From NCBI GenBank assembly GCA_022072085.1, contig JAJVII010000043.1, positions 446 to 64,445 on the forward strand: a stretch of 64,000 nt of DNA, read 5' to 3'. The stretch comes from Phycisphaerae bacterium. GTDB taxonomy: Bacteria > Planctomycetota > Phycisphaerae > JAJVII01. Both the position numbers and the translations under genes were made by a program. Below the pieces are notes generated by a model. It worked only from the letters and a program-made list of their open reading frames with translations. It was not told the origin of the DNA and ran no database searches. Of this stretch, positions 32,963 through 55,140 are shown piece after piece (within the stretch, counting starts at the first letter, position 1; every line of letters starts with the position of its first letter).

Positions 32963-32981
32963 CGACGGAAGGAAGCGACCC

Positions 32982-34166: not shown

Positions 34167-34170
34167 ACCC

Positions 34171-35208: not shown

Positions 35209-35212
35209 CGTC

Positions 35213-37876: not shown

Positions 37877-37880
37877 GACC

Positions 37881-37894
37881 GGCACGAACGACGC
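37881..37894 (+). promoter_or_regulatory. Weak sigma-54-like element GGCACG-AACGA-CGC
   Basis: GG/GC spacing and the GGCACG -24 box are correct but the -12 region lacks TT. Lies upstream of the 37934 octaheme gene. Confidence 0.3.
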
Positions 37895-37933
37895 CCGCAA
37901 CCGTTCGGTCCTGATTCTGGATTCGAGTCTGAA

Positions 37934-39136
37934 GTGAACGAGCAACTTGTACGACATCTTGGCGTGTCCCGATGGATCGCCCGATCCGCGATGGCGCTGC
38001 TGTCGATCGGACTGGTCGCGGGTCTGGCCCGGGCGCTGGCTGACGGCGACGCCCCGGCCGCCGAACCCGCGAAGGTGCAACCCGCGCCCAACCCGCACTG
38101 GAACGACGCCGGCTGCGCCACCTGCCACGGGCCGGGCGAGCCGAAGAAGATCGCCCCGGCTGACGCCGACAAGCTCTGCCTCTCCTGCCACGACGGCAAG
38201 CGGGCGCTGCTGGAGACCCACCCGGTCGGCCGACCGCTGGACGCCGAGCAGTTCAACCAGCCGCCCGGCTGGCCGTTGACCGACGGGCGCATCGGCTGCC
38301 TGAGCTGCCACAACCCGGCCCGGGAGCACTGCCGGCGCGGGCAGCGGAGGCCGATGCTCAACCCGATGTTCCTGCGCGGGCTGGCCGCCGGGGGCGTGGT
38401 CAACGCGTTCTGCTCCAACTGCCATCGGCTGGGCAATTACCAGAAGCTCAACCCGCACGTCCAGCGCGACGAGTCGGGCGTGCTGGCAGCCAAGTGCGGC
38501 TTCTGCCACGGCGAGGCGATGAGCGCCCAGGCGAAGGTGCGCACCGGCTACGAGGGGCTGCACCGCCCGCAGGTGGAACTCTGCCGCGGCTGCCATCCGA
38601 CGCACATCGAGTATTTCAATCCCGGCCATGTCGGGCAGAAGCTCTCGCCGACGATGCTGGCGCGGGTCAAGCCGCTGGCTGACCTGGTCGGTCCGGCGCC
38701 CGGCGGGCAGATCGCCTGCTCAACCTGCCACAACCCGCACGAAGCCGGCGTCTTCCCCCTCGGCAGCGAAATGAACGGTCCGACGCCGCTGCGGGCGGCC
38801 GGCCCGGACAAGATCATCGCCTCGATGAACCCCAGCAAGCTCTGCTCGAGCTGCCACGAGATGGCCCGCGGCGCCGGGGCGCTGAAGGTCGAGAAGGGCC
38901 CGGAGGACGCCAACGCCCCGGTCCTGCCCGAGCCGCCGCTGCTGAAGCTGGCCGTCTGCCCCGTGGACGACCGGCCGCTGGGGCCCGACGCGATCACCGC
39001 GACCGTCCGCGGGCAGCGGATCACCTTCTGCTCGCGCGTCTGCATGAGGAAGTTCCAGACCGACCCCGACGCCTGCCTGCTGAAGATCCGCCGTATGCAG
39101 CAGCAGGCGCCGACCACGCAACCGCAATCGCCGTGA
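37934..39136 (+). CDS. Octaheme c-type cytochrome with C-terminal YHS/TRASH-like metal-binding domain
   Basis: Signal peptide (MALLSIGLVAGLARALA is an alternative start at 37991). Eight heme motifs: CATCH, CLSCH x2, CSNCH, CGFCH, CRGCH, CSTCH, CSSCH. The C-terminal CPVDDRPLGPDAITATVRGQRITFCSRVCMRKFQTDP matches a YHS-type Cys pattern. Confidence 0.75.
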   Translation: MNEQLVRHLGVSRWIARSAMALLSIGLVAGLARALADGDAPAAEPAKVQPAPNPHWNDAGCATCHGPGEPKKIAPADADKLCLSCHDGKRALLETHPVGRPLDAEQFNQPPGWPLTDGRIGCLSCHNPAREHCRRGQRRPMLNPMFLRGLAAGGVVNAFCSNCHRLGNYQKLNPHVQRDESGVLAAKCGFCHGEAMSAQAKVRTGYEGLHRPQVELCRGCHPTHIEYFNPGHVGQKLSPTMLARVKPLADLVGPAPGGQIACSTCHNPHEAGVFPLGSEMNGPTPLRAAGPDKIIASMNPSKLCSSCHEMARGAGALKVEKGPEDANAPVLPEPPLLKLAVCPVDDRPLGPDAITATVRGQRITFCSRVCMRKFQTDPDACLLKIRRMQQQAPTTQPQSP

Positions 39137-39146
39137 GGACGCCGCC

Positions 39147-41144: not shown

Positions 41145-42279
41145 GCGCGTCCTCCGACAGATCGAGGTGAAGCTGGCCAAGCTGAGCTGGGCCGCCATCC
41201 GCACGACGACGGTTCGGCTGTGGGCGGCGGCGATCCTGGTCGTCGTGGTCTGGGCCGGCGCCGTCGCGGTGCGCTACCTGGTCCGCCAGGTCTTCCAGCC
41301 CGCGCCGGTTCCGCAGAAGTTCCTCGCCTGGCAGGGACACATAGAAGCCGACGACCTGCGACAGCCTGACGTGCCGGGCCTGAACGCCCCCAGCCAGCGG
41401 GCCCCGCTGGGCCACTATCACACCGTCGAGTCGTGGTATCAGCCCGAGCCGCGCAACGCCTGCACGCTGTCCGGCTGCCACGGTCCGCTGCCGCACGAGA
41501 AGATCGCGACGGTGCGGGCCTTCGCCAACTTCCACACGACGTTCCTCAACTGCCTCACCTGCCACGGAGAATATGACGCCGGTCCGATCCCCGCCTGCTG
41601 GGTAAACACCCAGAGCGGCGAGGCCCAGGACCCGCCGCCGCTGCTCCAGATCATCAGCTACTTCCAGGAGCAGCAGGCCGAGCTTCGCAAGCGGGCCGAG
41701 TCGGCCGACGCCGCCGGCCAGCCTCAGCCTGACGCCGGAGCGGCGCTCTTCCCGCCGCTGTTCGCCGACACGCCACGGCAGGCCAACGACAAGGTGCTGC
41801 CGTTGCTGCGCGAGGTGATCGCGCTGACCGGTCCGCGCGGCGTGCTGAACTACCTGCTGCTCCAGATTCAGACCAGCCAGCCCGGCTCGCCGGTGTGGAA
41901 GCACGCGATGGCCCAACTCGCCAGCGAAGCCCCCAGCCATGCCCGCGGGCAATACGGCGCCAAGATCGCCCCGGGCGGCGGCGACGACTACCTCGACGCC
42001 AACGACGCCTTGGCCAAGCTGGCCCGGCAGTATCTCAAGGCCTCCCAGGGCGGCGACCGCTCACGGCTCTACGGGCAGATTCACAAGTCCGTGATGTCCC
42101 AGCCGCACGATTGCGTCACCTGTCACGACACGCAGGCCCATCGGCTGGATTTCGCCAAGCTCGGCTATTCGCCGCAGCGTGAGAACGACCTGCGCAACCT
42201 GGAGCAGGCACGCGTCGGCGACATGGTCCGCCACGGCGGCGTCTGGCGGATGCCGGCCATGATGATGGAGGGCCCGTGA
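41137..42279 (+). CDS. Membrane-anchored c-type cytochrome (2 CXXCH + 1 CX4CH), CbcL-associated
   Basis: AAGGAGG lies 6 nt upstream of ATG 41137. TM anchor (LWAAAILVVVVWAGAVAV), then CTLSGCH, CLTCH and CVTCH. Overlaps the preceding gene by 8 nt. ORF-track 41041 is an extension. Confidence 0.6.
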   Translation: MVKRVLRQIEVKLAKLSWAAIRTTTVRLWAAAILVVVVWAGAVAVRYLVRQVFQPAPVPQKFLAWQGHIEADDLRQPDVPGLNAPSQRAPLGHYHTVESWYQPEPRNACTLSGCHGPLPHEKIATVRAFANFHTTFLNCLTCHGEYDAGPIPACWVNTQSGEAQDPPPLLQIISYFQEQQAELRKRAESADAAGQPQPDAGAALFPPLFADTPRQANDKVLPLLREVIALTGPRGVLNYLLLQIQTSQPGSPVWKHAMAQLASEAPSHARGQYGAKIAPGGGDDYLDANDALAKLARQYLKASQGGDRSRLYGQIHKSVMSQPHDCVTCHDTQAHRLDFAKLGYSPQRENDLRNLEQARVGDMVRHGGVWRMPAMMMEGP

Positions 42280-43289
42280 TGCGCGCCCGCCTCCTCTGCC
42301 TGGTCCTGGGGGCGACGGTCCTGCTGACGGCCCCCGCCGACGCCGTCGCGCCCATGCCCCCGGACAAGCGGATCGTCGCGAAGGTCTCCAGCCGACTGGC
42401 CGGTCCCGACGATGCCCCGCTGGTCATGCCCACCGACGTCGCCTCCGACAGCCGCGGCCGCGTCTACGTCGCCGACGGCGTGAACAACCGCGTGCTGATC
42501 TTCGACGCCGCAGGCAAACCCGCCGGCCTGCTGACCACCGCCCGCGACACGCCGCTCAAGTGCCCGACCGGCCTGTTCGTGGACGCGACCGACCGGCTCT
42601 GGATCGCCGACACCGGCAACCGGCGGGTTGTCGTCGTCGCCCCGACCGGCGAACTGGCCGACGTGATCCCCGTCGCGGGCGCCGACGCCGCCCACCCGAC
42701 CGACGCCACCGACGTCGCCGTCAGCGCCGACGGGACGCGCCTGTTCGTCATCGACAACGACAACCACCGCATCCTGATCCGCGACAACGCGACCGGCAAG
42801 TGGACCGCCGCCGGCAAGTCCGGCCAGGCGCTGGGCCAGTTCCGCTGGCCATTTACCGCCTGCATCGACGGCGACGGCGAGCTGCTGGTCTGTGAGGCCA
42901 TCGGCGCCCGCGTGCAGCGGGTCGTCCCCGGACCCGAGCCCCGGTGGGCCGGCGAAATCGGCCACTTCGGCGTTCGGCTGGGCCAGCTCTATCGCCCCAA
43001 GGGCGTCGCGTCGGTCGGCCGCGGCGACGCGACCCGCGTCTACGTCTCCGACTCGACCACCGGCACGGTGCAGGCGTTCGACCTCCAGGGCCGCTCGCAG
43101 GGCGCGCTGACCGACGACCAGGGCCGCCTGCTTCGATTCGAGCACCCGATGGGCCTGTGGATCGACCGCCAGGGGCGGCTGCTCATCGTCGAATTCGGCG
43201 CCAACCGCGTCGCGGTCGTCGACCTGCCCGACAGCCGGCCCGCGCCCGACGCGCCGACCACGCAACCCGACGCGGAGGGCCGCCCGTGA
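42276..43289 (+). CDS. NHL-repeat beta-propeller protein (periplasmic)
   Basis: Signal peptide, then repeated …RVYVADGVNNRVLIFD…, …LWIADTGNRRVVVV…, …LFVIDNDNHRILIRD…, …VYVSDSTTGTVQAFD… blades. Confidence 0.7.
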   Translation: MMRARLLCLVLGATVLLTAPADAVAPMPPDKRIVAKVSSRLAGPDDAPLVMPTDVASDSRGRVYVADGVNNRVLIFDAAGKPAGLLTTARDTPLKCPTGLFVDATDRLWIADTGNRRVVVVAPTGELADVIPVAGADAAHPTDATDVAVSADGTRLFVIDNDNHRILIRDNATGKWTAAGKSGQALGQFRWPFTACIDGDGELLVCEAIGARVQRVVPGPEPRWAGEIGHFGVRLGQLYRPKGVASVGRGDATRVYVSDSTTGTVQAFDLQGRSQGALTDDQGRLLRFEHPMGLWIDRQGRLLIVEFGANRVAVVDLPDSRPAPDAPTTQPDAEGRP

Positions 43290-46099
43290 TCGGCAGCCGA
43301 CCAGACCGGCCCGCCGTCGTTGGCCTGCTGGCGCTGGCGGCCGCTGCGCTCTGCCTGCCGGCCGGCGCCCGCGGCCAGGACCGCAACCCGGTCTCGCTGA
43401 CGGCCAACGGCGGCCAGCAGTGCGCGACCTGCCACCTGCGATGGACCGACAGTTTCACGACCAACTATCAGGCCGGCCAGTTGCCGCTGCTGATCGATCG
43501 GCCGGACAACAACGTCGTCGCCGAGGAAGACTCCTGCCTGGGCTGCCATGACGGCGGCGTCGCCGACAGCCGCGACCGCGTCTGGCGCAAGCACGGCCAC
43601 CGCACCGGCATCGCCGTACCCAAGGACATGGCCGTCCCCGAGCAACTGCCACTGGACGGCGGCAAGGTCGCCTGCCGCACCTGCCACTCGGCCCACGGCG
43701 GCGGCGCCGGCGCGGGCGGCATCTCCGACATCGTCTTCCTGCGCATGGACAACAGCCGGGACCAGCTCTGCAAGAGCTGCCACACCGACGCCGCCGGCGG
43801 CAAGGTCGCCCACTCGGCCCACCCGATGGGCCCGATGCCCGCGCCGATCCCCGCGATGCTCGCCGACGCCGGCGGACGCGCCGGCAAGGACGGCCGCACC
43901 CTTTCCTGCCAGACCTGCCACGCCCCCCACGGCGGCGGCGACGACAACCTGCTCATCATCGACGCCAGCCGAAGCACCCTGTGCGTCGCCTGCCACACGC
44001 AGATGGCAGTCGAGCGCTGGCGGCCGGGCATCAGCGGCGATCACCCCCAGAACCCGCCGCTCCAGAACCGCGCCCAACGCGACGCGATCAAGGCCATGGG
44101 CGGACGCGTCGGACCCGACGACACCCTCGTCTGCCTGAGCTGCCACCGCATGCACAACGGCGCCGCCGGCAGCAAGATGCTCGCCGACACGCTGGCCGAC
44201 GGACGCTTCTGCCTCGACTGCCACCCCGACCGCAAGACGATACTGGCCTCGATGCACGACCTGCGCAAGAGCGCCCCCGAGTCCCGCAACGACGCTGGCC
44301 GAACGCCCGACCAGAGCGGGCCCTGCGGCGCGTGCCACAGCTTCCACACCTACTCCCGCAAGCCGGTTCCCGCACCGGTCGATCCGACCGGGCTGTGCAC
44401 CACCTGCCACCGACCGGGCGGCGCGGCCGCGAAGTTCAACCCGACCTTCGGCCATCCGACGGACCTGGGCGGGGCCAACCTGCCGGCGCAGGCCAGGCTG
44501 CCGCTCTATCCCGACGCCGCCCACGCCGGGGCCAGGTCCATCGCCTGCCTGAGCTGCCACAACCCGCACGACCCGGGCAACGCGAACTTCCTCCGCGACA
44601 AGCCCGACGAACTCTGCGGCCGATGCCACCCTGGGCCGGCCGAGTCGCTCGCGGGCGCCCACGACCTGACCGCCATGCCCAAGGCCGCCAACGGCCGCGG
44701 CATGACGGTTGAGCAGAGCGGGCGCTGCGGCTTCTGCCACGCCATCCACAACAGCGAAGGCCCGCTGCTGTGGGCCGCAACGCCCGGCCAGCCGGCTTCG
44801 CCCGACGCCGCATGCACCGGCTGCCACAGCGGCGAAGGTGTCGCCCGGGCCAAGCCCGCCAGCGCCCTGTCGCACCCGACCGGCCCGGGGACCGCGGGGT
44901 TCGCGCAGGTGCTGCCGATCAGCGTGCCGCTGTTCGACGCCGCCGGCCATCGCGCCAAGGACGGCGCCGTCGCCTGCGGAACCTGCCACGACGTCCACGG
45001 CGACAGCCGCGCCCGCGCGTCGCTGCTCCGCCTGGACAAGGGCCTGCCGACTTCCGCGCTCTGCGTCCAGTGCCACGCCGAGCAAGGCTTCATGGCCCGA
45101 GGCCAGCACGACGCCCGCGGCGGCGCCGACGCGTGGAAGGCAATCGTCAAGACCAACCCCAAGGCTGGTGAGGACCTCTGCGCCGCCTGCCACGTCGCCC
45201 ACAGCGACGACAAGGCCCGCGGCCTGTGGACCGTCGCCGGCAAGGGCGGCGGCGCCCCGGCTGACGCCGCCTGTCTGAGCTGCCATCCCAAGCAGGCCTG
45301 GGCCCAGCCGGCCGGCGAGCTGGCTGCCGGGACGATGATTCATCCGCAGATCGTCCAGGCGACCGCGGCGCTCAAGGCCGTCGCCCTGCCGATGGGGCCC
45401 GATCCGGGCGACGGCAAGCTGGACATCGAGTGCGCGACCTGCCACAACCCGCACGCGACGCGCGGGACGGCCGACATGCTCCGCACCGCCGGCAGCCTCG
45501 AGGCAGCGACGCTCTGCACCCGCTGCCACGCCGATGCCCGCGCGGTGCAGTCCGGCCCGCACGGGGCGGCGTCGCTGGCTGCGGCGAACAAGGTCAAGGC
45601 GGCCCAGCCCGCCGCCGGCCAGGCGGCCGCGGTCTGCGGGCCCTGCCACGACGTCCACGCAACCGACCACAGCAGCCGCTCGAAGCTCTGGGCCCTGGGA
45701 GAGCCGACCAAGGCCGACGGCACGCCGGACGGCTCGCCCGACGCCCGCTGCCTCCAGTGCCACGGGCCGGGCGGCTCGGCCCGCCAGCCGGCGATGGTCA
45801 AGCACCCCAAGGTTTACCTGCCGGTGGGCGGCGCCCAGGGCGGGATCACCTGCGCGACCTGCCACATCCCGCACGGAAGGACCGACCTGCCCGTGGCCGC
45901 GCTGGGCGACGACGCCGAAGCCCGCACGCGGCGCGAATCGACCCGGCCGATGGTTCGCCCCGACGCCGTGCAGGACAGCTGCGCCATCTGCCACGGGCCC
46001 GACGCCCTGCGGCGGTTCCTCTACTTCCACCAGCCCGAGAAGCGGCTGCGGATGCACTTCTGGGCATCGCCGCCGCCCAAAGGTCCGTCGCAGAAATAG
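43286..46099 (+). CDS. Giant multiheme c-type cytochrome (~24 CXXCH), secreted
   Basis: GTG start (GTGA overlap, GGAGGG 7 nt upstream). Signal peptide (…LCLPAGARGQD), then 24 CXXCH motifs spread over 937 aa. ORF-track 42944 is an extension. The 1005-aa ORF 43040..46057(-) is antisense. Confidence 0.8.
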   Translation: MIGSRPDRPAVVGLLALAAAALCLPAGARGQDRNPVSLTANGGQQCATCHLRWTDSFTTNYQAGQLPLLIDRPDNNVVAEEDSCLGCHDGGVADSRDRVWRKHGHRTGIAVPKDMAVPEQLPLDGGKVACRTCHSAHGGGAGAGGISDIVFLRMDNSRDQLCKSCHTDAAGGKVAHSAHPMGPMPAPIPAMLADAGGRAGKDGRTLSCQTCHAPHGGGDDNLLIIDASRSTLCVACHTQMAVERWRPGISGDHPQNPPLQNRAQRDAIKAMGGRVGPDDTLVCLSCHRMHNGAAGSKMLADTLADGRFCLDCHPDRKTILASMHDLRKSAPESRNDAGRTPDQSGPCGACHSFHTYSRKPVPAPVDPTGLCTTCHRPGGAAAKFNPTFGHPTDLGGANLPAQARLPLYPDAAHAGARSIACLSCHNPHDPGNANFLRDKPDELCGRCHPGPAESLAGAHDLTAMPKAANGRGMTVEQSGRCGFCHAIHNSEGPLLWAATPGQPASPDAACTGCHSGEGVARAKPASALSHPTGPGTAGFAQVLPISVPLFDAAGHRAKDGAVACGTCHDVHGDSRARASLLRLDKGLPTSALCVQCHAEQGFMARGQHDARGGADAWKAIVKTNPKAGEDLCAACHVAHSDDKARGLWTVAGKGGGAPADAACLSCHPKQAWAQPAGELAAGTMIHPQIVQATAALKAVALPMGPDPGDGKLDIECATCHNPHATRGTADMLRTAGSLEAATLCTRCHADARAVQSGPHGAASLAAANKVKAAQPAAGQAAAVCGPCHDVHATDHSSRSKLWALGEPTKADGTPDGSPDARCLQCHGPGGSARQPAMVKHPKVYLPVGGAQGGITCATCHIPHGRTDLPVAALGDDAEARTRRESTRPMVRPDAVQDSCAICHGPDALRRFLYFHQPEKRLRMHFWASPPPKGPSQK

Positions 46100-47202: not shown

Positions 47203-48090
47203 CTATTCGCGGGACGCCCCCAGGCGCACCGTCGCCGGGCGGCCGGCTACGAAGGCGTTGTCCTTGTTGTCCATCTCCAGGATCACGCCGAAGGTGTTGG
47301 ACGCACGATCGACCTGCGGATCGACGCGGAGCACGCGGGCCTCGCGGACTTGGCTGCCCATCGTCACCGTGGCCTTCAGGCCCGGGACGATCTGGCCGTA
47401 GTAGTCGCCCAGCACGTTCAACTCGACCCAGAGGCTGTCCAGGTTGACCAGCTCGCAGACGGGGGCCTGCTCCTGCACGGCCTCGCCGGCCTCCTTGTAG
47501 GTCCGGGAGATCACGCCGTCCCACGGCGCCAGCAGGCGGCGGCGTTTCAGGGCGACCTCGGCCTGGCGGGCTTCCTGGATTTCCAGATCCTGCTGAAACT
47601 TCGCGTAGTCCATGCGGACCTTGGCCAGCTCGACCTCCAGCTCGGCCTGGCGAAGCTCCCACGCCGTCGCGGCGTTCTTCTTCTGCAACTCCTTCACCCG
47701 TTCCAGGTCGTGGGCCTTCTGATCCATCGTCAGGCGGGCGGCGGCGACCTGGTGCGTGCTGGAGGCCTTGAGCTTGGCGATCGCCAGCGCCGCCTCCTCC
47801 AGTTCGCTGTCCAGCCGGGCGAGCAGGTCGCCCTGGCGGACACGCTGGCCGACCTCGGCGGTCCGCTCGGCGATCACGCCCGCGATGCTGAGCGCCAGCG
47901 TCACCTGCTTGCTCGGCCGCAGTTGGCCCTGGAGGTCGATGTCGGTCACGCGCCGGGCCTCGGTCCGCCCGTTGCCGGCCGGGTCGGCGGCCCGCCCCTG
48001 TCGCTCGATGCCGACCACCACCGCCGACGCCAGGCAGATCACCAGGAACGCCCAGACCGTCGGCCGCGAATTCAGCTTCAACCTGCTCAT
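47203..48090 (-). CDS. HlyD/membrane-fusion-protein family periplasmic adaptor (third adaptor of the operon)
   Basis: N-terminal TM anchor (VWAFLVICLASAVVV), a coiled-coil hairpin (…ARLDSELEEAALAIAKLKA…ELEVELAKVRMDYAKFQQ…) and a beta-barrel/lipoyl-like C-terminus. Start 48090 (MSRLKLNS) sits downstream of the ORF-track start. Confidence 0.65.
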   Translation of the reverse strand: MSRLKLNSRPTVWAFLVICLASAVVVGIERQGRAADPAGNGRTEARRVTDIDLQGQLRPSKQVTLALSIAGVIAERTAEVGQRVRQGDLLARLDSELEEAALAIAKLKASSTHQVAAARLTMDQKAHDLERVKELQKKNAATAWELRQAELEVELAKVRMDYAKFQQDLEIQEARQAEVALKRRRLLAPWDGVISRTYKEAGEAVQEQAPVCELVNLDSLWVELNVLGDYYGQIVPGLKATVTMGSQVREARVLRVDPQVDRASNTFGVILEMDNKDNAFVAGRPATVRLGASRE

Positions 48091-48196
48091 CTCGGTCTCC
48101 TCGTGCGGGAGCGCTGTCGGGCGCTCCGGGGGGTTACTTGATAGTGTAGCGCTCATCTCTGCCGCGCTCCCATCGCGGCGGATGTCGCGCGCCCGG

Positions 48197-50185
48197 TCAC
48201 GTCTCGCGGCCGGCGAATCCAAGGTACTCGTCCAGCCAGTCGTCGGTCCGCAGCACGTCCTTGCGCTGCCGCAGCGCGACCCGCCCGCTGCGCCGCTGGG
48301 CGGCGTCGATGACCCGCCTGGCCGACGCCGAGTCGATCTCGCCGTCGGCGGCGGCGTAGCGGCGGCGGAGCAACCCGCCCAGCCGCGGGGCGTAACGGGC
48401 CAGCAGTTCGTCGGTCAGGCTGACCATCGCAACGGCGCTGCCGGGATCGCCCTGCCGGCCGGATCGGCCGAAAAGCTGGCGATCGACGCGGGCCGAGTCG
48501 TTCCGCTCGGCGGCGATGACGTGCAGGCCGCCGGCTTCGGCGACGTCGCGTCCGAGTTTGATGTCGGTGCCGCGGCCGGCCATGTTGGTCGCGACGGTGA
48601 CGCGTCCGGCGGCGCCCGCGCCGGCGACCACCTGGGCCTCCTCGCGGTGGCGGACGGCGTTGAGGACCGCGTGCTCCAGCCCGACGGCCGTCAGCAGGGC
48701 GCTTAGATTCTCGCTGGCTCGCACGTTGCGGGTGCCGACCAGGACCGGGCGGCCGGCCTGGTGCATGCGGGCGACCTCCTCGACGACGGCGCGGCTGCGG
48801 GCCTCGTCGGTCGCGAAGACGCGGTCGGGCAGATGCACGCGGCGGATCGGCCGATGCGTCGGGATCACGACGGTAGGCAGGTGGTAGATCTGCCAGAACT
48901 CGCGCCACGCCTCGGCGGCTGTGCCGGTCATGCCCGAGAGCTTGCGATACATGCGGAAGAACCGCTGGAAGCTGATCCGCGCGAACGTGTCCTTGGGCGG
49001 GTTAACGGTCAGCCGCTCCTTGGCCTCGATCGCCTGGTGCAGCCCCTCGCGCCAGGTGCGGTCGGGCATGAGTCGGCCGGTGAAGTCGTCGACGATGACG
49101 ACCTTGCCCTCGTCGATGACGTATTGCTTTTCGAGCAGGTAGAAGTGGCGGGCGACCAGGGCCTGGTTGACCATCTCCTCGCGCCGCCGGGCGCCGGCCC
49201 AGACGCCGCCCAGGCCGGCTGCAAGTCCCTCGGCCCGCCGGCGACCTTCAGCGGTCAGGTCCACCTCGCGGTAGCGCTGGTTGAGACGGTAGTCGCGGCC
49301 CTCGACCAGCGCCGGGGCCAGGGCGGCCGCCTGCACGTAGGCCTCCACCTGCTCGGCGTTGGGGGCGTCGCCGGAGATGATCAGCGGCGTGACGGCCTCG
49401 TCGATGAGCACAGAGTCGGCTTCGTCTATGATCGCGTAGTGCAGCCCGCGCCCGACCAGTCGGTCGGTCCCCGCGCCGCTGCCGTCGACCAGGCGGGCCA
49501 GCAGCGCCGACGACAGGTTGCTCAGCCGGCCCAGCGCGAGCCGGTCGCGGAGGTAATCGGCGGTGATCTCCTTGTTGGTGCAATAGGTGATGTCGCAGCG
49601 GTAGGCGTGGCGTCGGTCAGGGGCGGCCATCGGGCCCTGGACGGCCGACACCGTCAGCCCGCAGAAGCGGTAGACCGGCGCCATCCAGGCGGCGTCGCGG
49701 TCGGCCAGGTAGTCGTTGACGGTGACGACGTGGCAGCCGCGGCCGCGCCAGCCGGCAATCGTCGCGGGCATCGTCGCCGAGAGCGTCTTGCCCTCGCCGG
49801 TGGCCATCTCCGCGACGCAGCCGGCCTCCAGCGCCAGGGCGCAGGCGACCTGCTCCAGGAACGGCCGCATCCCCATCTGCCGCGACGCGACCTCACGGAC
49901 CATGGCGAACGCCCGCAGCCGGTCGTCCGGCCGCTCGCGCCCGCGGGCGAACAACTCGCGCATCTGCCCGGCCTGCTCGCGGAGGCGGGCCTCGGTCAAC
50001 TCGGCGAATTCCTTCTCCATCGCCAGCACGCGGGCGGCTTCGCCCAGGAACCGGGCCCGTCGCGGGGCCAGCCGGGCCAGCGCCCCGCCGGCGGCGTCCC
50101 AGGCGGCGTCCAGTCCGCGCGGCAGCGGCTTGCGGGCTGTCCGCTGGGCGAGCATCCGCCAGATTGTGCTGGGCACGGTGCTCAT
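48197..50185 (-). CDS. SecA-like motor ATPase paralogue (DEAD motor NBD1/PPXD/NBD2, truncated C-terminus), non-canonical context
   Basis: Contains the SecA hallmarks …MATGEGKTLSATMPA…VVTVNDYLADRDAAWMAPVYRFCGLTV…, …IDEADSVLIDEA… and …TNMAGRGTDIKLG…, but is only ~660 aa against >850 for housekeeping SecA, and lacks the C-terminal Zn-finger region. Start 50185 is 2 nt after the upstream gene's stop; the ORF-track alternative is 50236. Confidence 0.7.
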   Translation of the reverse strand: MSTVPSTIWRMLAQRTARKPLPRGLDAAWDAAGGALARLAPRRARFLGEAARVLAMEKEFAELTEARLREQAGQMRELFARGRERPDDRLRAFAMVREVASRQMGMRPFLEQVACALALEAGCVAEMATGEGKTLSATMPATIAGWRGRGCHVVTVNDYLADRDAAWMAPVYRFCGLTVSAVQGPMAAPDRRHAYRCDITYCTNKEITADYLRDRLALGRLSNLSSALLARLVDGSGAGTDRLVGRGLHYAIIDEADSVLIDEAVTPLIISGDAPNAEQVEAYVQAAALAPALVEGRDYRLNQRYREVDLTAEGRRRAEGLAAGLGGVWAGARRREEMVNQALVARHFYLLEKQYVIDEGKVVIVDDFTGRLMPDRTWREGLHQAIEAKERLTVNPPKDTFARISFQRFFRMYRKLSGMTGTAAEAWREFWQIYHLPTVVIPTHRPIRRVHLPDRVFATDEARSRAVVEEVARMHQAGRPVLVGTRNVRASENLSALLTAVGLEHAVLNAVRHREEAQVVAGAGAAGRVTVATNMAGRGTDIKLGRDVAEAGGLHVIAAERNDSARVDRQLFGRSGRQGDPGSAVAMVSLTDELLARYAPRLGGLLRRRYAAADGEIDSASARRVIDAAQRRSGRVALRQRKDVLRTDDWLDEYLGFAGRET

Positions 50186-50187
50186 GG

Positions 50188-52425
50188 CTACTGGGCGGCC
50201 TTCTCCTGGAACATCTGCCGCAGGGTCCGCCACCACTGCCGGGCCAGCGGCTTGGGCGGGTTCTGGAAACGGACCACGACCCGCTGGCCGCTGCGGAGCG
50301 CGACCGGTCGGCCGGTTTCGTCGCAGAGCCTGCGGATGGATTCATCGTCGGGGACGATGCGCAGCTCGAATCCGCGCTGAAGGGCCCGCGTGCCTTCCTT
50401 GTCGCCAGGGGCGGTCATGATCGACCCGCCGGCGGCGTAGCCCAGGGCTGCGGAGGGCAACTGCTCCTGGCCGGCCGGCAGCATGCGGTCCAGCCGCCCG
50501 GTCAGCTTCAGGTCGGGCCGGCCCTGGACGCGAATCTCGACGCGGGGGTCGGCGTCCTGAATGCGGGCGGCCTCGGAGGGGTCGGCCCAGGCGCGAATGA
50601 TGAAGCGGTCCGTGCCGGCCACCTTGCCCAGTTCCTGGCCGCGCAGCAGCCGGGCGCCTTGCAGGGCGTCGGCGTCGGGCGAAAGCCAGACGCCCGTCCG
50701 CGGGGCGTGGATCGTCAACCTGGCTTCGCGGTCGCGGGCCAACTTCTGCTGACCGTCGATCAGCGCCTCGCGCTGCCGCTGGACCTGCTGGCGGACGCTC
50801 TCCTGGCTCTCGCCGGTCTGCCGCTCCTGGAGCCAGGTCAGCCCGGCGTAGGCCTGGAGGTAGGCCAGATCGGCGTCGATGCCGGCCAGGTCGGCCTGCA
50901 CCTCGGGGCTCTCGGAGATCAGCAGCGGCGGCCCGTCGGGGCTCACCGCCGCGCCGTCGGGCAGCACCTTGTCAGCCGTGCCGTCCTCGGCGACGTAGAT
51001 GACCGACAGCTCCTCCGGCTCCCAGACGCCGTCGACGCGCGTGCGGTCGGGCATGCGGATGGCCCCGACGCCGACGTAGATCGCCGCGGCCGCCAGCAGC
51101 GCGGTGAAGACCGCCCGCCCCCGGGTCCGCGACAGCTCCTGGTGCGTAAGCAGGTAGTGGGCGAACTTGCCCAGCGGGACCAGCACCCACGCGACCGCCG
51201 CCGCCAGCGCCAGGGCGACGCCGAGCATGAGAAAGCGCGCGGCGATGAACAGCAGGATCGCAACACAGATGAAGACGCGGTAGATCGTCGAGGCGACGGC
51301 GTAGACGACCAGCCAGGCCTTCTCGCCGCGGCTGTGCGAGGGGTCGGGCGCCCGGCGGACCGACCAGACCCAGCGGCGGACGAGGTAGTAGAGATACTGT
51401 CGGCTGCGCTGCTGGAGGTTGGGCATCTCCAGCCAGTCGCTCAGAATGTAGTAGCCGTCGTAGCGGAGCAGCGGGTTGGCGTTGAACAGCAGCGTGCTGA
51501 CCGAGGCAATGAAGATGGCGTTGTAGGCGACGGTGTTGATCGTGCTGCCCGGGATGGTGCGGGCCCAGACGATGGCCGCGACGGCGGCGACGGCCATTTC
51601 GACGTACATGCCGGCGGCCGAGACGACGATCCGCCGCCACTTGCTGCGAAAAGCCCACGCGCTGCTGGCGTCGACGTAGGGCAGCGGGGTGAATACCAGG
51701 AACATGACGCCCATCGCGTGGACCTCGCCGCCGCCGCCGTCGCGCCCGAACCACTTGCAGGCGAACGCGTGGCCGAACTCGTGCAGCACCTTGAGCCCGA
51801 CGATCGTCGCGTAGAGCAGCGGAAGGTTGCCCAGGAGGTTCTGTCGGCTGAAGAACTGCATTGTCTGCGAGGTCAGTTCGCCGAAGCGCGGCAGGACGAA
51901 GTAGAGCCCCGCGCCCATCAGCGCCAGCCACAGCACGAAGCCCGTGCGCGTGAACAGGCGGCCGAACAGTCCGACCCAGCGCTTGAGGAAATGGTCGGGG
52001 TCCAGAAGCGGGATGCGGACGAACAGGAAGTTCATCAGGTAGCCACGCACCTCACGGGTGACGCGCTTGTGGTAGCGTTCGAACAGGCCCGCGGCGTCGG
52101 GGGGCAGCTCGGCGGCGATCAGGTTGTTGACGTAGAGCTGGCCCAGGAGCTGGATGGCCTCGTTCTGCGTGGGGGCCTCGTCGCCCAGCCGGTCGTTGCA
52201 CAGGTCCCAGACCTCGGCGACGGTCCGCCGTCCGTCCAGCAGGGCGACGAAACGATAGGCCGACTCGTTGAGGCGGAAGAACTGGTTGCTGCCCGGGTCC
52301 TGGAGCACCTGCCACATCCGCCCGCGGTAGTGCTGGCGGAACGACTGCACCGTGCCGCGCAGCCGCGGGCGGAGGTCCGCGACGCGATACCACGACTCGC
52401 TGAATGTCGGGCGATCGACGGGCAT
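50188..52425 (-). CDS. Three-part fusion: N-terminal PqqD-like (RiPP-recognition-element-like) domain + site-2-protease/M50-like polytopic metalloprotease (HEFGH) + C-terminal HlyD-like periplasmic adaptor domain
   Basis: The N-terminus …FFRLNESAYRFVALLDGRRTVAEVWDLCNDRLGDEAPTQNEAIQLLGQLYVNNLI… resembles the PqqD/RRE fold. About 6 TM helices carry HEFGHAFACKWFG (HExxH) and a downstream conserved Asp region. The C-terminal ~300 aa is coiled-coil/beta like membrane fusion proteins. 745 aa. Confidence 0.65.
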   Translation of the reverse strand: MPVDRPTFSESWYRVADLRPRLRGTVQSFRQHYRGRMWQVLQDPGSNQFFRLNESAYRFVALLDGRRTVAEVWDLCNDRLGDEAPTQNEAIQLLGQLYVNNLIAAELPPDAAGLFERYHKRVTREVRGYLMNFLFVRIPLLDPDHFLKRWVGLFGRLFTRTGFVLWLALMGAGLYFVLPRFGELTSQTMQFFSRQNLLGNLPLLYATIVGLKVLHEFGHAFACKWFGRDGGGGEVHAMGVMFLVFTPLPYVDASSAWAFRSKWRRIVVSAAGMYVEMAVAAVAAIVWARTIPGSTINTVAYNAIFIASVSTLLFNANPLLRYDGYYILSDWLEMPNLQQRSRQYLYYLVRRWVWSVRRAPDPSHSRGEKAWLVVYAVASTIYRVFICVAILLFIAARFLMLGVALALAAAVAWVLVPLGKFAHYLLTHQELSRTRGRAVFTALLAAAAIYVGVGAIRMPDRTRVDGVWEPEELSVIYVAEDGTADKVLPDGAAVSPDGPPLLISESPEVQADLAGIDADLAYLQAYAGLTWLQERQTGESQESVRQQVQRQREALIDGQQKLARDREARLTIHAPRTGVWLSPDADALQGARLLRGQELGKVAGTDRFIIRAWADPSEAARIQDADPRVEIRVQGRPDLKLTGRLDRMLPAGQEQLPSAALGYAAGGSIMTAPGDKEGTRALQRGFELRIVPDDESIRRLCDETGRPVALRSGQRVVVRFQNPPKPLARQWWRTLRQMFQEKAAQ

Positions 52426-52431
52426 CGCGGC

Positions 52432-54366
52432 TCACCACCAGAGTTTCATGCGGACCCAGCGGATCAGCGGGCGGGTCCAGAGCGTCGCGTAGCGGTCGCG
52501 GCCGAGGTGGATGCGGGCCGAGCCCTCCAGTCCGGGCTTCATCCAGTCCGGCTGCTCGTCCAGCCGCACGCGCACTTTGAAGACGTTGTCGCCGCCGACG
52601 ACCTCGGCCACCGGGCTGATGTGCACGACCTCGAACCCGACGGTCTTGTCCGGGTCCGACGGGTTGACCAGCCGACCGTGCTGGTGCTCCTGCACGTCCA
52701 CGATGTCGCGCTCGGGGACGTTCAGCTCAGCCAGCAGCGCCGTCGGGCCGATCTCGAACAGCTTGTCGCCGGTGTGCAGCGGGCGGCCGACGGTCTGCGT
52801 CCAGTCGCCCCAGAGCACCTGGCCATCGATCGGCGCTGCGATCTTCGCCCGGCTGATCTGCTCGTCCAGGAGCCGGACCTTGGCGCGGGCCCCGTCGGCC
52901 TGGGCGAGCTGGGCCTGCTGCTCGGCCACCTTCTTGGCGGCCAGCGCCGTGTCGGCCTGCTTGAGGTAGCGGTCGACCTCCGCCTGGGCCGCCTCGCGCT
53001 GCGAGACCAGCGTACTGACATCCAGGACCGCGAGGAGTTGGCCGTCCTTGACATGGGCGCCGGGCTCGATGCCCTCGCCCAGTTCCTTGAGCGGCGCGTC
53101 GTAGGGCGCGGTGATGATCCGCTTCTGCATCGGCTGAAGCACATAGGGCGACTTCACCTCGTGGTCGCCGCGGGCCAGTATCGAAAAGACGATCAGCCCG
53201 CAGATCGCCATCGCCGTCAGCTTGGCCCAGGTGTGCTTGGGACCGATCAGCACGCCCAGACCGCGCCCGGCGGCGTCGGCCCAGCGGGCCCCGAACCAGC
53301 GGTCGGTCCGGTGCAGACGCAGCAGCCAGGGGGTGCACAGGTCGCAGGTCAGCCGCATCGCCTCGATGTCGGCGGCGTCCCACGGGCGATCCAGCGGGCG
53401 CTCGGCCGTCACGACACCGACCACCTCGCCCTCGCGGCGGAGCGGCAGGCTGAGCACCGCCGACGGGCCGAACCGGCCGGCCAGTTCCGCGGTCATCCGC
53501 CCGACGCACGAAGACTGGGGCGGCGGCGGGTGGATCACCTCCAGGTCCTGGTCGAGGCACTCCTCCATCGCCGACTCGACGGACTGGATCAGCTCCATCC
53601 GGCGGCTGAATTTTTCGGTGTGGCTGGTGGCGCGGAGCTGCACGTAGCGCCCGCGCAGGAAGCCGATGCTCACGCGGTCGGCGTCCCAGCGGGAAGCCAG
53701 CTCGTTGCAGAAGGTCATCGCGGCGGCGCGAAAACGGTCGTGCTCGCCGACGGCCGCGAGCGTTTCCATCGCAGTCCGCATGTGGGCCATGTCGGCCTGG
53801 CGGGTCTGGGTGGCCAGCCGCATCTCGTAGAGGCTCAGCAGCGGCAGGGTCATCTCCAGCCGCTCGCAGGCCACCGACACGGCCGCCGGCTCGGACCGGT
53901 CGATGAGGAACGCCTCGGCGCCTCGCGTCTGCCCGGCCCCGCGGATCGGCAGCAACACGATGTGGCGGGCCGCCTGCTGGCCGTAGAGTTCGTCGCCGCG
54001 CAGCAGCGGCGCGGTGCGGGCCGAGCCGCTCTGCACGACCTCCGGGCCCAGCTCGACGGCCCGGGCCAGCCAGGCCGGGATCGTCCGGTCCTGCGGCAAT
54101 TGAGGCCAGACGCAGAGCAGCCCGAGGCGGGACTGGGCGGGCCGGCCCTCCTCGGATTGGTCAGCCGACACGCGGAGGATCGCCCCCCCAGCCGCCGGGC
54201 CGAGCAGGCACTGGGTCTGAAGCAGGCTGACAAGGAAGTCCTGGGGCGGGCCGGTGAAACGCATCAGCCGCTCGACGATTTCGCCGGCGGTGGGCGCACC
54301 CTGTCCGGCGCCCGCGGCGACGGGCTGGGTCCGGACCGGCTGGGCCTGTTCGCTCTCCATCGTCAT
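52432..54366 (-). CDS. Cytoplasmic GAF-like domain(s) + TM + HlyD-like periplasmic adaptor domain protein
   Basis: The N-terminal ~370 aa is GAF-like by fold resemblance. A TM helix follows (LTAMAICGLIVFSILA), then an MFP-like coiled coil (…QREAAQAEVDRYLKQADTALAAKKVAEQQAQLAQADGARAKVRLLDEQ…) and beta domain. Confidence 0.55.
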   Translation of the reverse strand: MTMESEQAQPVRTQPVAAGAGQGAPTAGEIVERLMRFTGPPQDFLVSLLQTQCLLGPAAGGAILRVSADQSEEGRPAQSRLGLLCVWPQLPQDRTIPAWLARAVELGPEVVQSGSARTAPLLRGDELYGQQAARHIVLLPIRGAGQTRGAEAFLIDRSEPAAVSVACERLEMTLPLLSLYEMRLATQTRQADMAHMRTAMETLAAVGEHDRFRAAAMTFCNELASRWDADRVSIGFLRGRYVQLRATSHTEKFSRRMELIQSVESAMEECLDQDLEVIHPPPPQSSCVGRMTAELAGRFGPSAVLSLPLRREGEVVGVVTAERPLDRPWDAADIEAMRLTCDLCTPWLLRLHRTDRWFGARWADAAGRGLGVLIGPKHTWAKLTAMAICGLIVFSILARGDHEVKSPYVLQPMQKRIITAPYDAPLKELGEGIEPGAHVKDGQLLAVLDVSTLVSQREAAQAEVDRYLKQADTALAAKKVAEQQAQLAQADGARAKVRLLDEQISRAKIAAPIDGQVLWGDWTQTVGRPLHTGDKLFEIGPTALLAELNVPERDIVDVQEHQHGRLVNPSDPDKTVGFEVVHISPVAEVVGGDNVFKVRVRLDEQPDWMKPGLEGSARIHLGRDRYATLWTRPLIRWVRMKLWW

Positions 54367-54420
54367 CGGCTTGCCCCCGGTCCGTCGGTCGGACGGGCTG
54401 GGCGCGGCGGCGACGCCGAC

Positions 54421-54828
54421 CTAGTTGGCCTGCGTCCGCCGGGCGCGTTTGTTGGCGTCCAGTTCCAGCTCGCCGAACTGCTCCTCGTGACGCCGCACGA
54501 GCTGGCTGAGCGTGATCGCCAGGCGCTTGGCCGAGTAGTAGTTCAGGATCACCCGGTGGGTGAGCTTGAGCAGGATTTCGGGTTGGCTGTCGGGTTGGGC
54601 GCCCTGGTTGACCAGGTTCAACCCCAGGTCGAGGATGACCTCGTCGGGCGTGCCGTTGGTGCGGAACGCGTTGGCATAGGAAGTAGTCAGCTCGCGCTCG
54701 TCGACCCGGACGCGGACCTGCGTGCCGGCCTGTTCGGAGGCCTGCGGCGAAGCCGGAGCGGCGCCGGGGGCGGGTTCCTTCTTCTCGACCATGCGTGGGT
54801 TCCTTTCCATCACAGGATTATCGGCCAT
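54421..54828 (-). CDS. DUF3467-family small protein (start uncertain: 54828, 54810 or 54792)
   Basis: …TSYANAFRTNGTPDEVILDLGL…ILLKLTHRVILNYYSAKRLAITLSQLV… matches the conserved YSN…EF(V/I)LDF…AKRL pattern of DUF3467. Lies 54 nt upstream of the GAF-HlyD gene on the same strand. Confidence 0.45.
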   Translation of the reverse strand: MADNPVMERNPRMVEKKEPAPGAAPASPQASEQAGTQVRVRVDERELTTSYANAFRTNGTPDEVILDLGLNLVNQGAQPDSQPEILLKLTHRVILNYYSAKRLAITLSQLVRRHEEQFGELELDANKRARRTQAN

Positions 54829-54959
54829 CGGCCGGTCTTGCTTAATGCCTATTGCGTTAGCGCGTGGCGTCCAATTCAGCCCCTCGTGAATACTCGGGGG
54901 GCGGCGGACTCCGCGATTGCTGCGGCCCCGAGCGTGTTCACCCGGGCTATTGAGTCCCG

Positions 54960-55085
54960 CAAAAGAAATCTTCACCACAGAGAACACAGAGGGCACAGAG
55001 TCAGACGTATTGAATGATTCTGGATTTCGGTCATTTCTTGACGTTTCGGACCCCCTCTGTGATCTCGGTGTCCTCTGTGGTGAAT
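54960..55085. repeat. Word-repeat inverted repeat (CACCACAGAGAACACAGAGGGCACAGAG / CTCTGTGATCTCGGTGTCCTCTGTGGTG) flanking an AT-rich core
   Basis: Arms at ~54967-54995 and ~55053-55081 are near reverse complements built from CACAGAG words. Confidence 0.45.
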
Positions 55086-55140
55086 GAAGATTCCTTTTGC
55101 AGGAGTCAATAAGTACGCCCCCTGCATTCTCGACGCCGAC

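Follow-up and report, generated by a model that had tools for sequence, protein, structure and literature searches.

Described systems related to the locus

The closest described system is the conserved "secondary SecA_DEAD domain protein" locus published from comparative genomics by Kamneva, Poudel and Ward (2015, PLoS One, PMC4452313). That paper proposes a role like that of a type I secretion system, with SecA as the ATPase and the M50 protein as the membrane component, and gives no functional test; carriers include Phycisphaera mikurensis (PSMK_16490/16500), the SecA clade stands beside actinobacterial SecA2 in the tree, and the GAF gene alone of the set had detectable expression in exponential-phase M. 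extorquens, a finding that counts against the export model discussed below. Other carriers of the module are Methylobacterium extorquens (META1p2399-2402) and Ruegeria pomeroyi (SPO2714-2718). We found no report of the operon's function in the literature. The operon considered here, from an uncultured Phycisphaerae MAG, is a further instance of this known, uncharacterized locus. The two gene sets are identical: the published loci have a SecA_DEAD protein lacking wing and scaffold, a membrane protein that combines an M50-like part with HlyD, a GAF+HlyD fusion and a HlyD protein of its own, and OEP or SapC is sometimes present; here too, a SecA_DEAD protein without SecA_SW adjoins genes for a polytopic M50-HlyD protein, a GAF+HlyD fusion and a further HlyD protein. 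A sequence-only reading of this DNA had presented the machine as undescribed, a view that the 2015 gene set overturns. What differs is, first, the naming of PqqD/RRE and DUF3467, neither of which is a term in the paper's text supplementary files (its unnamed "conserved hypothetical" cluster beside the GAF gene is probably DUF3467), and, second, the link to giant LEPR-XLL proteins, which is drawn here and is absent from the accessible part of the paper. Nor did we find a published statement linking the module to LEPR-XLL proteins.

Type I secretion itself, in its forms with bacteriocin or colicin V peptidase ABC exporters and of the LapA type, shares with the module the alpha-hairpin adaptors, the TolC partner (in related loci), a leader-directed protease on the inner-membrane component (a putative role here) and, as candidate cargo, repetitive proteins of very large size (calcium-binding, Ig-like or LamG) that show no obvious Sec signal peptide. 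Membrane-fusion proteins with alpha-hairpin, lipoyl and barrel domains are present, as in classical type I systems, but the ABC energizer is not: the module has a SecA-type ATPase and no ABC transporter, an intramembrane zinc protease (M50) instead of a C39 cysteine peptidase, three distinct adaptors, and a putative signal (LEPR-XLL) that is N-terminal. The accessory SecA2 proteins of Gram-positives and mycobacteria are likewise second SecA paralogues dedicated to a subset of cargo, but they retain scaffold and wing and partner with SecYEG or SecY2, whereas here both domains are missing and the SecA is accompanied by adaptors and an M50 protease. The RiPP HExxH proteases (daptide, NF041824; YydH/EpeP, NF058609) include EpeP, an M50 protease thought both to cleave and to export its peptide; the module protein differs in scoring under the family cutoffs, in its extra C-terminal adaptor domain, in having no RiPP precursor or tailoring genes and in its SecA-like partner. 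Finally, West-Roberts et al. (2023, bioRxiv 10.1101/2023.11.21.568195) described wing-less SecA domains inside giant Omnitrophota and Actinobacteria proteins and proposed self-export. The likeness lies in SecA_DEAD and preprotein-binding domains that lack scaffold and wing and are tied to a proposal of giant-protein export; in those giants, however, SecA is internal and type II secretion genes are nearby, while the present SecA is a free-standing protein of 662 aa in an adaptor/protease operon.

Organization of the operon

Five tightly packed genes, all on the minus strand, make up the operon, beginning with the DUF3467 gene and followed in order by those for the GAF-HlyD protein, the RRE-M50-HlyD fusion, the short SecA paralogue and the standalone HlyD; the gaps are 54, 6, 2 and about 40-106 nt. 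The operon is confirmed as real, and its genes are strongly gene-like by codon-position GC (GC3 0.91-0.94). The sequence-only reading had reported four co-directional, closely spaced genes, and these were found where it placed them, together with the DUF3467 gene, although three starts had to be corrected (50185 for the SecA-like gene, 54792 for DUF3467 and 48090 or 48156 for the standalone HlyD). Its domain assignments (PqqD/RRE, M50, HlyD, GAF and SecA) all returned HMM matches, and it was right that three HlyD-type adaptors occur without an ABC or RND gene in the operon. A check of the gene list and Pfam matches extended the absence of ABC genes to the immediate flanks, and neither Pfam nor NCBIfam recognized a pore-forming transporter among the operon proteins. 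No module protein has a model of its own in NCBIfam.

Protein components

The central protein (50188..52425, 745 aa) joins three parts. Its PqqD-like winged-helix domain, or RRE (52111..52368, residues ~20-105), is predicted to be cytoplasmic and has a three-stranded sheet with a winged-helix bundle; PqqD (PF05402) matches at 1e-7 and 32.6 bits, above the cutoff of 23.4, and by structure comparison the fold is closest to leader-bound lasso-peptide B1 proteins. A seven-helix membrane domain follows (51061..51948), carrying the motifs HEFGH (residues 215-219, nt 51769-51783) and NANPLLRYDG (residues 315-324, nt 51454-51483). This is the site-2 protease (S2P) arrangement of peptidase M50, with HExxH and NxxPxxxxDG (Asp as third zinc ligand) in separate transmembrane helices of an S2P core fold. 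Across 50 homologues H215, E216, H219, N315, N317 and D323 do not vary, and P318 hardly does. The structural matches to this domain are RseP and SpoIVFB, the Pfam match to Peptidase_M50 is weak, and the NCBIfam model daptide_HExxH matches at 1e-43. The C-terminal periplasmic membrane-fusion domain (50191..51057; HlyD_3 6e-6) has alpha-hairpin (helices 507-537 and 543-568), lipoyl and beta-barrel subdomains. Because of the model helices and the positive-inside rule, we infer an N-in/C-out topology, in which the active site would face the cytoplasm.

The SecA-like gene (ORF 48197-50236) starts at the ATG at 50185, 2 nt past the M50 stop codon, and the resulting 662-aa protein (48197..50185) is identical to deposited P0241. 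Pfam returns SecA_DEAD (1e-98), SecA_PP_bind (1e-26) and P-loop_SecA (2e-53), and no match to SecA_SW. Aligned to residues 26-604 of B. subtilis SecA and terminating 10 residues further, the protein consists of NBD1, the preprotein cross-linking domain, NBD2 and the first turns of the scaffold helix, with no wing, two-helix finger or C-terminal tail; the motifs MATGEGKT (Walker A), DEAD, TNMAGRGTDI and GRSGRQGDPG are all in place. Motor and polypeptide clamp are thereby retained, and the parts with which SecA docks and acts on SecYEG are missing. That it is a short paralogue and not the housekeeping SecA, as had been proposed from the letters, is borne out by its scores of 625 bits on NF009538 (cutoff 814) and 613 on TIGR00963 (cutoff 800), along with the missing SecA_SW, scaffold, wing and C terminus. 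An accessory SecA2 identity fares no better (TIGR03714, 508 vs 930 bits; TIGR04221, 462 vs 725; TIGR04397, 549 vs 1085; NF012136, 434 vs 1100), and the protein falls under every NCBIfam SecA and SecA2 cutoff; no SecY2/Asp gene matched in Pfam among the neighboring ORFs scanned. Fragmentation of a canonical secA is ruled out, in keeping with the earlier reading, by the 120 best homologues, which are equally short (651-679 aa), have the same three domains and lack SecA_SW in 120 of 120 cases.

In the GAF-HlyD protein (52432..54366, 644 aa; GAF 6e-9, HlyD_3 3e-13, HlyD_D23 5e-8), a cytoplasmic N-terminal region of ~200 aa and unknown fold precedes the GAF domain (216-344), a transmembrane helix placed by hydropathy (380-398) and a periplasmic adaptor (~435-625). 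The standalone HlyD (ORF 47203-48222; HlyD_3 4e-20; RND_mfp TIGR01730 131 bits vs cutoff 95) most likely starts at the ATG at 48090 or 48156; the former gives a protein of ~295 aa (47203..48090). Transmembrane prediction gives it an N-terminal signal-anchor helix. DUF3467 (ORF 54421-54828; PF11950 2e-14) is deposited as a 123-aa protein (54421..54792, identical to P0121), a form that matches at 8e-15, and a start at the alternative ATG at 54828 would lengthen it to 135 aa. The protein is predicted to be cytoplasmic, and its AF2 model, of moderate confidence (pLDDT 67), shows four strands and then a long helix, with no significant fold match in the PDB.

Gene neighborhoods and candidate cargo

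The synteny sample comprised 81 distinct related loci, each counted only where its contig extends far enough. The gene arrangement is conserved far beyond chance: GAF-HlyD precedes the M50 fusion in 68 of 68 loci and the short SecA follows it in 60 of 62. The two loci without an adjacent SecA are both from Phycisphaerae. DUF3467 lies directly upstream of the GAF gene in 45 of 65 related loci and is found in 6 proteobacterial plasmid modules as well. The place of the standalone HlyD varies among relatives: it lies upstream of DUF3467 (22/32), 3′ of SecA, or, on the other strand, next to a TolC-family gene. A TolC-family (OEP) gene adjoins the standalone HlyD in 12 related loci, and the Methylosinus and Thalassospira operons have one too; none is encoded in the window, by which we mean the whole 64-kb stretch of DNA analyzed. 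Across the whole class the module components are 46-66% identical, the SecA-like protein, taken as a whole, being the best conserved of the five.

Candidate cargo comes from the neighbors. On proteobacterial plasmids, seven modules have an annotated gene upstream, and in all seven this gene directly precedes the module, is co-directional and measures 12-39 kb: 26.5 kb in Methylosinus, 24.4 kb in Alisedimentitalea, 31.8 kb in Pontibrevibacter, 38.2 kb and 38.8 kb in Pseudosulfitobacter, 31.6 kb in Mesorhizobium and 12.1 kb in Thalassospira, where the variant has no adjacent SecA. Four of the seven N-termini score 29-35 bits on the LEPR-XLL model NF012209 (cutoff 17), a fifth gene has the motif just 5′ of its annotated start, and the remaining two are LEPR-XLL by annotation, as is Pontibrevibacter, one of the scored four. 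None of these operons contains an ABC transporter. Among the 81 Planctomycetota loci, 12 have a LEPR-motif ORF near the module, leaving 85% without an adjacent one. Eight of the 12 start no more than 700 bp away from the module, where the density of LEPR ORFs farther out, which is not a genome-wide frequency, would predict 0.8 (Poisson P ~2e-6); on this basis LEPR-type genes are ~10-fold enriched beside the module. Six lie directly 3′ of SecA on the same strand. The Planctomycetota ORFs bear Ig-like, fn3, CARDB and SdrD-type surface domains, and inspection of the N-termini by eye found no obvious hydrophobic core. These neighborhoods point to giant or large surface proteins as the cargo, with the LEPR-XLL motif at the N-terminus. 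In the present 64-kb window there is no LEPR-type ORF or other cargo gene, so the link would extend to this locus by homology only.

A possible export pathway and its alternatives

We give about an even chance to our best explanation, that the module is a TolC-dependent, SecA-like-driven exporter and trimmer of giant LEPR-XLL surface proteins. Such an envelope-spanning machine would be built like a type I secretion system with a different inner-membrane engine. The three adaptors, two of which are fused to cytoplasmic or membrane modules, would form a tube through the periplasm, leading to a TolC-like channel of the outer membrane whose gene lies elsewhere. The tag on the cargo would be the short N-terminal "phi-E-x-LEPRLLL-S/T" (NCBIfam LEPR-XLL), and the RRE would bind this segment; the M50 site may cut at or near it, as the C39 peptidase does in bacteriocin ABC exporters or signal peptidase in Sec export, while the SecA-like ATPase would thread the unfolded giant polypeptide. 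The GAF domain might gate or scaffold the cytoplasmic assembly. DUF3467, 46-70% identical across loci, could be a cytoplasmic accessory or chaperone subunit; that role is a guess, and of the two roles suggested from the sequence, substrate or accessory, the conservation and the presence in proteobacterial modules speak for the latter and not the former. The Thalassospira variant and two Phycisphaerae loci have no adjacent SecA, so that the machine may be able to do without this motor, or its gene may lie at another site. To our knowledge, S2P-type folds are not known channels.

The same neighborhood data would also suit a retention-and-release scheme, in which the exported giant stays tethered through its LEPR-XLL segment in the cytoplasmic RRE until a small ligand, acting through GAF-controlled M50 cleavage, sets it free. 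The control of the LapA adhesin by LapG and LapD is a parallel, the cargo proteins look like adhesins, one adaptor is fused to a GAF domain of the sensor type, and the predicted topology puts RRE and active site both on the cytoplasmic side. SecA-type motors, however, normally begin at the substrate N-terminus, which fits a cleaved leader better, and we regard this scheme as unlikely. A role outside export, whether S2P-type regulated intramembrane proteolysis in signaling or quality control, with the adaptors serving to sense the state of the envelope, or efflux-like transport of something other than protein, would cast SecA as a remodeling ATPase. S2P homologues are classically signaling proteases, the matches to RseP and SpoIVFB and the GAF sensor domain are in line with that, and so is the lack of a recognizable pore-forming transporter in Pfam and NCBIfam. 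Yet the survey of the 81 neighborhoods found no conserved anti-sigma, sigma or transcription factor gene adjoining the module, the preprotein cross-linking domain is kept in the best-conserved protein of the five, and the recurrent partners are TolC and giant secreted-type proteins. We hold this to be very unlikely.

A small leader-bearing peptide, the substrate imagined in the sequence-only reading, is the least probable cargo that we considered. In such a RiPP- or bacteriocin-like system the RRE would bind the leader of a short precursor, M50 would cut it and the peptide would be exported, much as EpeP is thought to handle the epipeptide. The nearness of the RRE to leader-bound B1 proteins and the best NCBIfam matches, to RiPP proteases (daptide_HExxH 1e-43; YydH/LiaK 7e-9), point that way, but the scores are far under the family cutoffs (150 vs 300 bits and 36 vs 225 bits), and the 81 loci were found to share neither a small ORF nor a radical-SAM or other tailoring gene within 4 kb of the module. 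The recurrent neighbors are the giant LEPR-XLL genes, the class-wide identity is more suggestive of vertical inheritance than of a biosynthetic island, and a SecA motor with its clamp plus three adaptors would be excessive for a peptide. The remainder of that earlier proposal, in which a leader is recognized and cut and a SecA-type motor does the work of an ABC exporter, still offers the best mechanistic frame.

Applied to the export of LEPR-XLL giants, this frame might amount to a distinct, unnamed secretion pathway, in which a free-standing wing-less SecA, an M50 "signal peptidase" guided by the RRE and a hetero-oligomeric tube of adaptors ending at TolC would carry the giants across both membranes in one step; we put this somewhat below an even chance. 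If it is true, LEPR-XLL would be the dedicated N-terminal secretion signal of the pathway. The accessible part of a 2026 Chlorobium preprint notes an acquired secA, with no link to giant-protein export, and describes two giants, Cag_663 and Cag_665, that begin with LEPRxLL N-termini and have sapC and tolC on their flanks.

The operon and its place in the literature

Five co-directional genes on the minus strand make up the module, with a strongly gene-like GC pattern by codon position (GC3 0.91-0.94) in a window of about 70% G+C. From the 5′ end they encode a DUF3467 protein (54421-54792, 123 aa); a GAF-TM-HlyD adaptor protein, here GAF-HlyD (52432-54366, 644 aa); a fusion of a PqqD-like RiPP recognition element (RRE), an HExxH membrane protease and an HlyD domain (50188-52425, 745 aa); a SecA-like protein (48197-50185, 662 aa); and a standalone HlyD protein of about 295 aa (47203-48090, or to 48156). 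They stand 54, 6, 2 and about 40-106 nt apart. Window proteins are identical to deposited proteins of a Phycisphaerae MAG (locus tags BIFFINMI_03164 and 03166; P0001, P0121 and P0241). The sequence-only reading had picked out this operon, and that observation is confirmed here, as are all of its domain assignments, which Pfam and NCBIfam reproduce.

The same reading had called the machine undescribed, and in this it was mistaken, since the gene set was published in 2015 (Kamneva, Poudel & Ward, PMC4452313). That paper describes “secondary SecA_DEAD domain proteins” that lack the wing and scaffold and whose genes neighbour those for an M50-like membrane protein, a GAF protein and HlyD proteins. 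They occur in Planctomycetes (Phycisphaera mikurensis among them), Verrucomicrobia, Proteobacteria, Nitrospirae and Chlorobi, and the function proposed is type-I-secretion-like, with SecA as the ATPase and the M50 protein as the membrane component. Its S2 Table adds a SapC cluster (in Proteobacteria) and, where DUF3467 stands here, a “conserved hypothetical” without a name, which we infer to be DUF3467; neither “PqqD” nor “DUF3467” occurs in the searched text of the supplementary files. Targeted literature searches found no later functional study of the locus, and a 2021 review of tripartite pumps does not mention it. The sequence-only reading had named a match to an already characterised system as a ground for refutation, and that ground therefore holds only by half: the locus is described, not characterised, and the window carries a further member of a kind known from bioinformatics and experimentally uncharacterised.

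The short SecA and the protease fusion

The short SecA matches SecA_DEAD (1e-98), the preprotein cross-linking domain (1e-26) and the second P-loop domain (2e-53) in Pfam, with no Pfam match to SecA_SW. It aligns to residues 26-604 of Bacillus subtilis SecA and ends ten residues later, so that motor and clamp are retained but the scaffold helix is cut off after its first turns; in SecA structures the two-helix finger, the wing and the C-terminal tail lie beyond this end point. Its motifs are intact (Walker A MATGEGKT, DEAD, TNMAGRGTDI and GRSGRQGDPG), and in NCBIfam it falls short of every SecA and SecA2 model cutoff. The possibility of a frameshifted or fragmentary gene, which the sequence-only reading had named as refuting, can be rejected, because the 120 closest relatives are all 651-679 aa long and share the same three domains. 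The short SecA represents a stable family rather than a damaged secA.

For the central protein, an AlphaFold2 model (alignment of 50 homologues, mean pLDDT 82.9) gives Foldseek matches to MexA, AcrA and MacA at E of about 1e-11 over some 290 residues, including the alpha-hairpin. Fold comparison was needed to make its relationships to RREs and to site-2 proteases (S2P, M50 type) visible, as its sequence profile found only a weak match to EmrA among PDB sequences. HEFGH (215-219) and NANPLLRYDG (315-324) are invariant in 50 sequences. The model helices and the positive-inside rule suggest seven membrane passes with the N-terminus in and the C-terminus out, a topology that would place the RRE and the active site on the cytoplasmic side and the adaptor in the periplasm. 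In the GAF protein, a second GAF domain within the N-terminal 200 aa was considered and is not supported (hhalign probability 0.6%).

Annotation of these families is inconsistent. Databases name the central protein “PqqD family peptide modification chaperone”, “peptidase M50”, “biotin/lipoyl-binding protein” or “efflux RND transporter periplasmic adaptor subunit”, while automated annotation labels several short module SecAs “prepilin peptidase” or “DEAD/DEAH box helicase” (deposited proteins P0268 and P0312; related loci L085 11204-13120 and L099 17514-19538). NCBIfam has no dedicated model for any module protein.

Conservation and distribution

A scan of one genome per species yielded 326 relatives, the best 80 loci all coming from Planctomycetota/Phycisphaerae-type MAGs. 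Among 81 distinct loci, and counting only those whose contig extends far enough, the protease fusion is preceded by GAF-HlyD in 68/68 and followed by the short SecA in 60/62; DUF3467 lies directly upstream in 45 of 65. Median identity to the window proteins is 66% for SecA, 61% for DUF3467, 53% for the protease fusion, 46% for GAF-HlyD and 31% for HlyD. The operon family occurs in Planctomycetota, Proteobacteria and other phyla, and the protease fusion forms about 4,000 clusters at 50% identity (4,055 representatives, E<=1e-30), nearly all of the top 150 representatives being full length. Full-length homologues, 29-37% identical, are found on alphaproteobacterial plasmids.

The layout varies. 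SecA is not adjacent to the protease fusion in L098 (Thalassospira marina pCSC3H3), L027 and L023; in the Thalassospira variant the order is LEPR-XLL gene, DUF3467, GAF/HlyD, protease fusion, HlyD and TolC, and in L027 an opposite-strand carbohydrate kinase gene follows the fusion. SapC-family genes accompany the proteobacterial modules: in the second Pseudosulfitobacter module one separates the protease fusion from SecA (L099 19531-20352), and in Alisedimentitalea one is divergent from the giant gene (L092 1858-2001). This agrees with cluster 4 of Kamneva et al. and with the sapC beside the Chlorobium giant genes; neither the Planctomycetota loci nor the window showed a SapC gene.

The cargo: small peptides or giant proteins

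The sequence-only reading had envisaged a leader-bearing small peptide as the substrate. Its domains and general logic stand; the small cargo probably does not. The central protein does match RiPP proteases in NCBIfam, and these matches are real, but they fall far below the cutoffs, and the flanks of the 81 loci hold neither a conserved small ORF (at least 35 aa) nor a tailoring enzyme; for both reasons a small-peptide substrate is unlikely. All-against-all clustering of the flank ORFs (at least 35 aa) showed two recurrent neighbours only, a TolC-family gene by the standalone HlyD in 12 loci (TolC-family Pfam match OEP, 3e-39) and a sigma-54 activator in 9.

The cargo is probably giant proteins. 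In all seven plasmid modules with an annotated upstream gene, the module lies behind a co-directional giant gene: Methylosinus (26.5 kb, LamG-like), Alisedimentitalea (24.4 kb, calcium-binding), Pontibrevibacter (31.8 kb, LEPR-XLL domain-containing protein), Pseudosulfitobacter (38.2 kb, Ig domain, and 38.8 kb, LEPR-XLL, at its second module), Mesorhizobium (31.6 kb, Ig-like) and Thalassospira (12.1 kb, LEPR-XLL). The Methylosinus operon runs from the giant gene through DUF3467, GAF/HlyD, protease fusion, short SecA and HlyD to TolC, with no ABC transporter in it. Four proteobacterial giant N-termini score 29-35 bits against NF012209, the 24-position NCBIfam model named LEPR-8K (cutoff 17 bits). 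In Alisedimentitalea, the giant gene is preceded by VVEQLEPRLLLAADF, in frame and 14 codons ahead of the annotated start (L092, NZ_CP123586.1 183224-183270); that start, which misses the LEPR-XLL motif, was probably mis-called.

In Planctomycetota, 12 of the 81 loci hold an ORF, at least 200 aa long, whose N-terminus carries this motif. Eight of the 12 start less than 700 bp from the module, against 0.8 expected from the density of such ORFs farther away (Poisson P ~2e-6), and six come immediately downstream of SecA and share its strand. From 17 sequences the consensus phi-E-x-LEPRLLL-S/T-A emerges, and the proteins carry Ig-like, fn3, CARDB and SdrD-type domains. By eye, the N-termini inspected have a basic stretch ahead of the motif and no obvious hydrophobic signal-peptide core. 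Most Planctomycetota loci, including that of the window, have no adjacent cargo gene; the 64-kb window holds no LEPRxLL-type ORF, its single regex match lying deep within an unrelated ORF.

A similar, homologous-looking large ORF lies directly downstream of the short SecA in four Planctomycetota loci (L014 12385-18147, L031 12369-18179, L039 8963-10183 and L041 12458-18169). It reaches at least 1,900 aa where the locus permits, the L039 copy being a complete ORF of 407 aa. The N-termini are alike (FE-x-LE(P/Q/E)RLLLTT, then GG-x-F-x-Y), almost no Pfam domains were found, and the ORF may represent a conserved cargo family.

Three independent threads in the literature are consistent with export of giant proteins. 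In Chlorobium chlorochromatii, the giants Cag_663 and Cag_665 have N-terminal 24-aa LEPRxLL segments and flanking sapC and tolC, and the genome also has a horizontally acquired secA (Cag_1676) that the authors, in the text consulted, do not tie to the giants. In Omnitrophota and Actinobacteria, SecA_DEAD and preprotein-binding domains that lack scaffold and wing form part of giant proteins, and a role in export of the same giant protein has been proposed for them (10.1101/2023.11.21.568195). Moreover, the M50 protease EpeP is believed to cleave its peptide and to export it as well. No link between the module and the LEPR-XLL motif was found in the literature searched.

A model and its significance

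The module may represent a separate route by which giant proteins are secreted. Its observed basis is the parts list, the folds and motifs, the conservation, the recurrent TolC and LEPR-XLL giant neighbours and the lack of an ABC transporter. The three adaptors would assemble into a hetero-oligomeric tube that crosses the periplasm to a TolC-family channel; in the cytoplasm the RRE would dock the N-terminal LEPR-XLL segment of the cargo, and the adjacent S2P-type site would cut it; the unfolded chain would be threaded by the SecA-like motor, which may itself dock on the cytoplasmic GAF or RRE modules; and DUF3467 would be an accessory or chaperone subunit. A variant, by analogy with the Lap system, is that the RRE tethers the cargo N-terminus and M50 cleavage would release the protein. 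Against the model count the Thalassospira operon and two Phycisphaerae loci without an adjacent SecA, and the lack of an adjacent cargo gene in most Planctomycetota loci.

Outside ABC-driven type I systems, little is known of how bacteria export proteins of 4,000 to 13,000 residues and more across two membranes. If the model is right, the module is a concrete candidate machine for the task, LEPR-XLL, so far only an annotation label, becomes a candidate signal, and the recurrence of wing-less SecA domains with giant proteins gains a rationale. RRE domains are known from small-peptide biosynthesis; here, on the same condition, one would for the first time read the secretion signal of a giant protein, and a site-2-type protease would for the first time serve as a secretion-coupled leader peptidase. 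The link to LEPR-XLL makes the route testable, and since carriers include genetically tractable bacteria (Methylobacterium extorquens, Ruegeria pomeroyi and rhizobia), a direct test is possible.

Surroundings of the operon

The operon is flanked by unrelated genes: an opposite-strand small lipoprotein-like ORF, a 589-aa protein of no known family and multihaem cytochromes. Elsewhere in the 64-kb window there is neither a TolC gene nor a second paralogous module. No Rfam match at E<=1 was found in or around the operon and no sigma-70-like promoter at it, and terminator-like sites do not exceed the shuffled expectation. The intergenic region of about 350 nt directly upstream of the DUF3467 gene contains a nearly perfect hairpin of about 164 nt (54948-55111; arms 54948-55000 and 55055-55111), which as minus-strand RNA folds at -85.7 kcal/mol (z = -9.6 against shuffles). 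Single-copy in the window and without an Rfam match, it could terminate the upstream gene, act as a regulatory leader or be MITE-like in nature.

Behind a gene for CcmF-type cytochrome c maturation (30590-32962) comes a run of multihaem cytochromes with MtrC/MtrF-like domains, which includes a cytochrome b561 fusion (39147-41144), an NHL-repeat protein (42276-43289) and, at 42944-46099, an ORF of about 1,050 aa in which paired CXXCH motifs recur (Paired_CXXCH_1 in 5 stretches). The whole stretch 30590-46099 may be an extracellular electron-transfer locus in the Phycisphaerae MAG.
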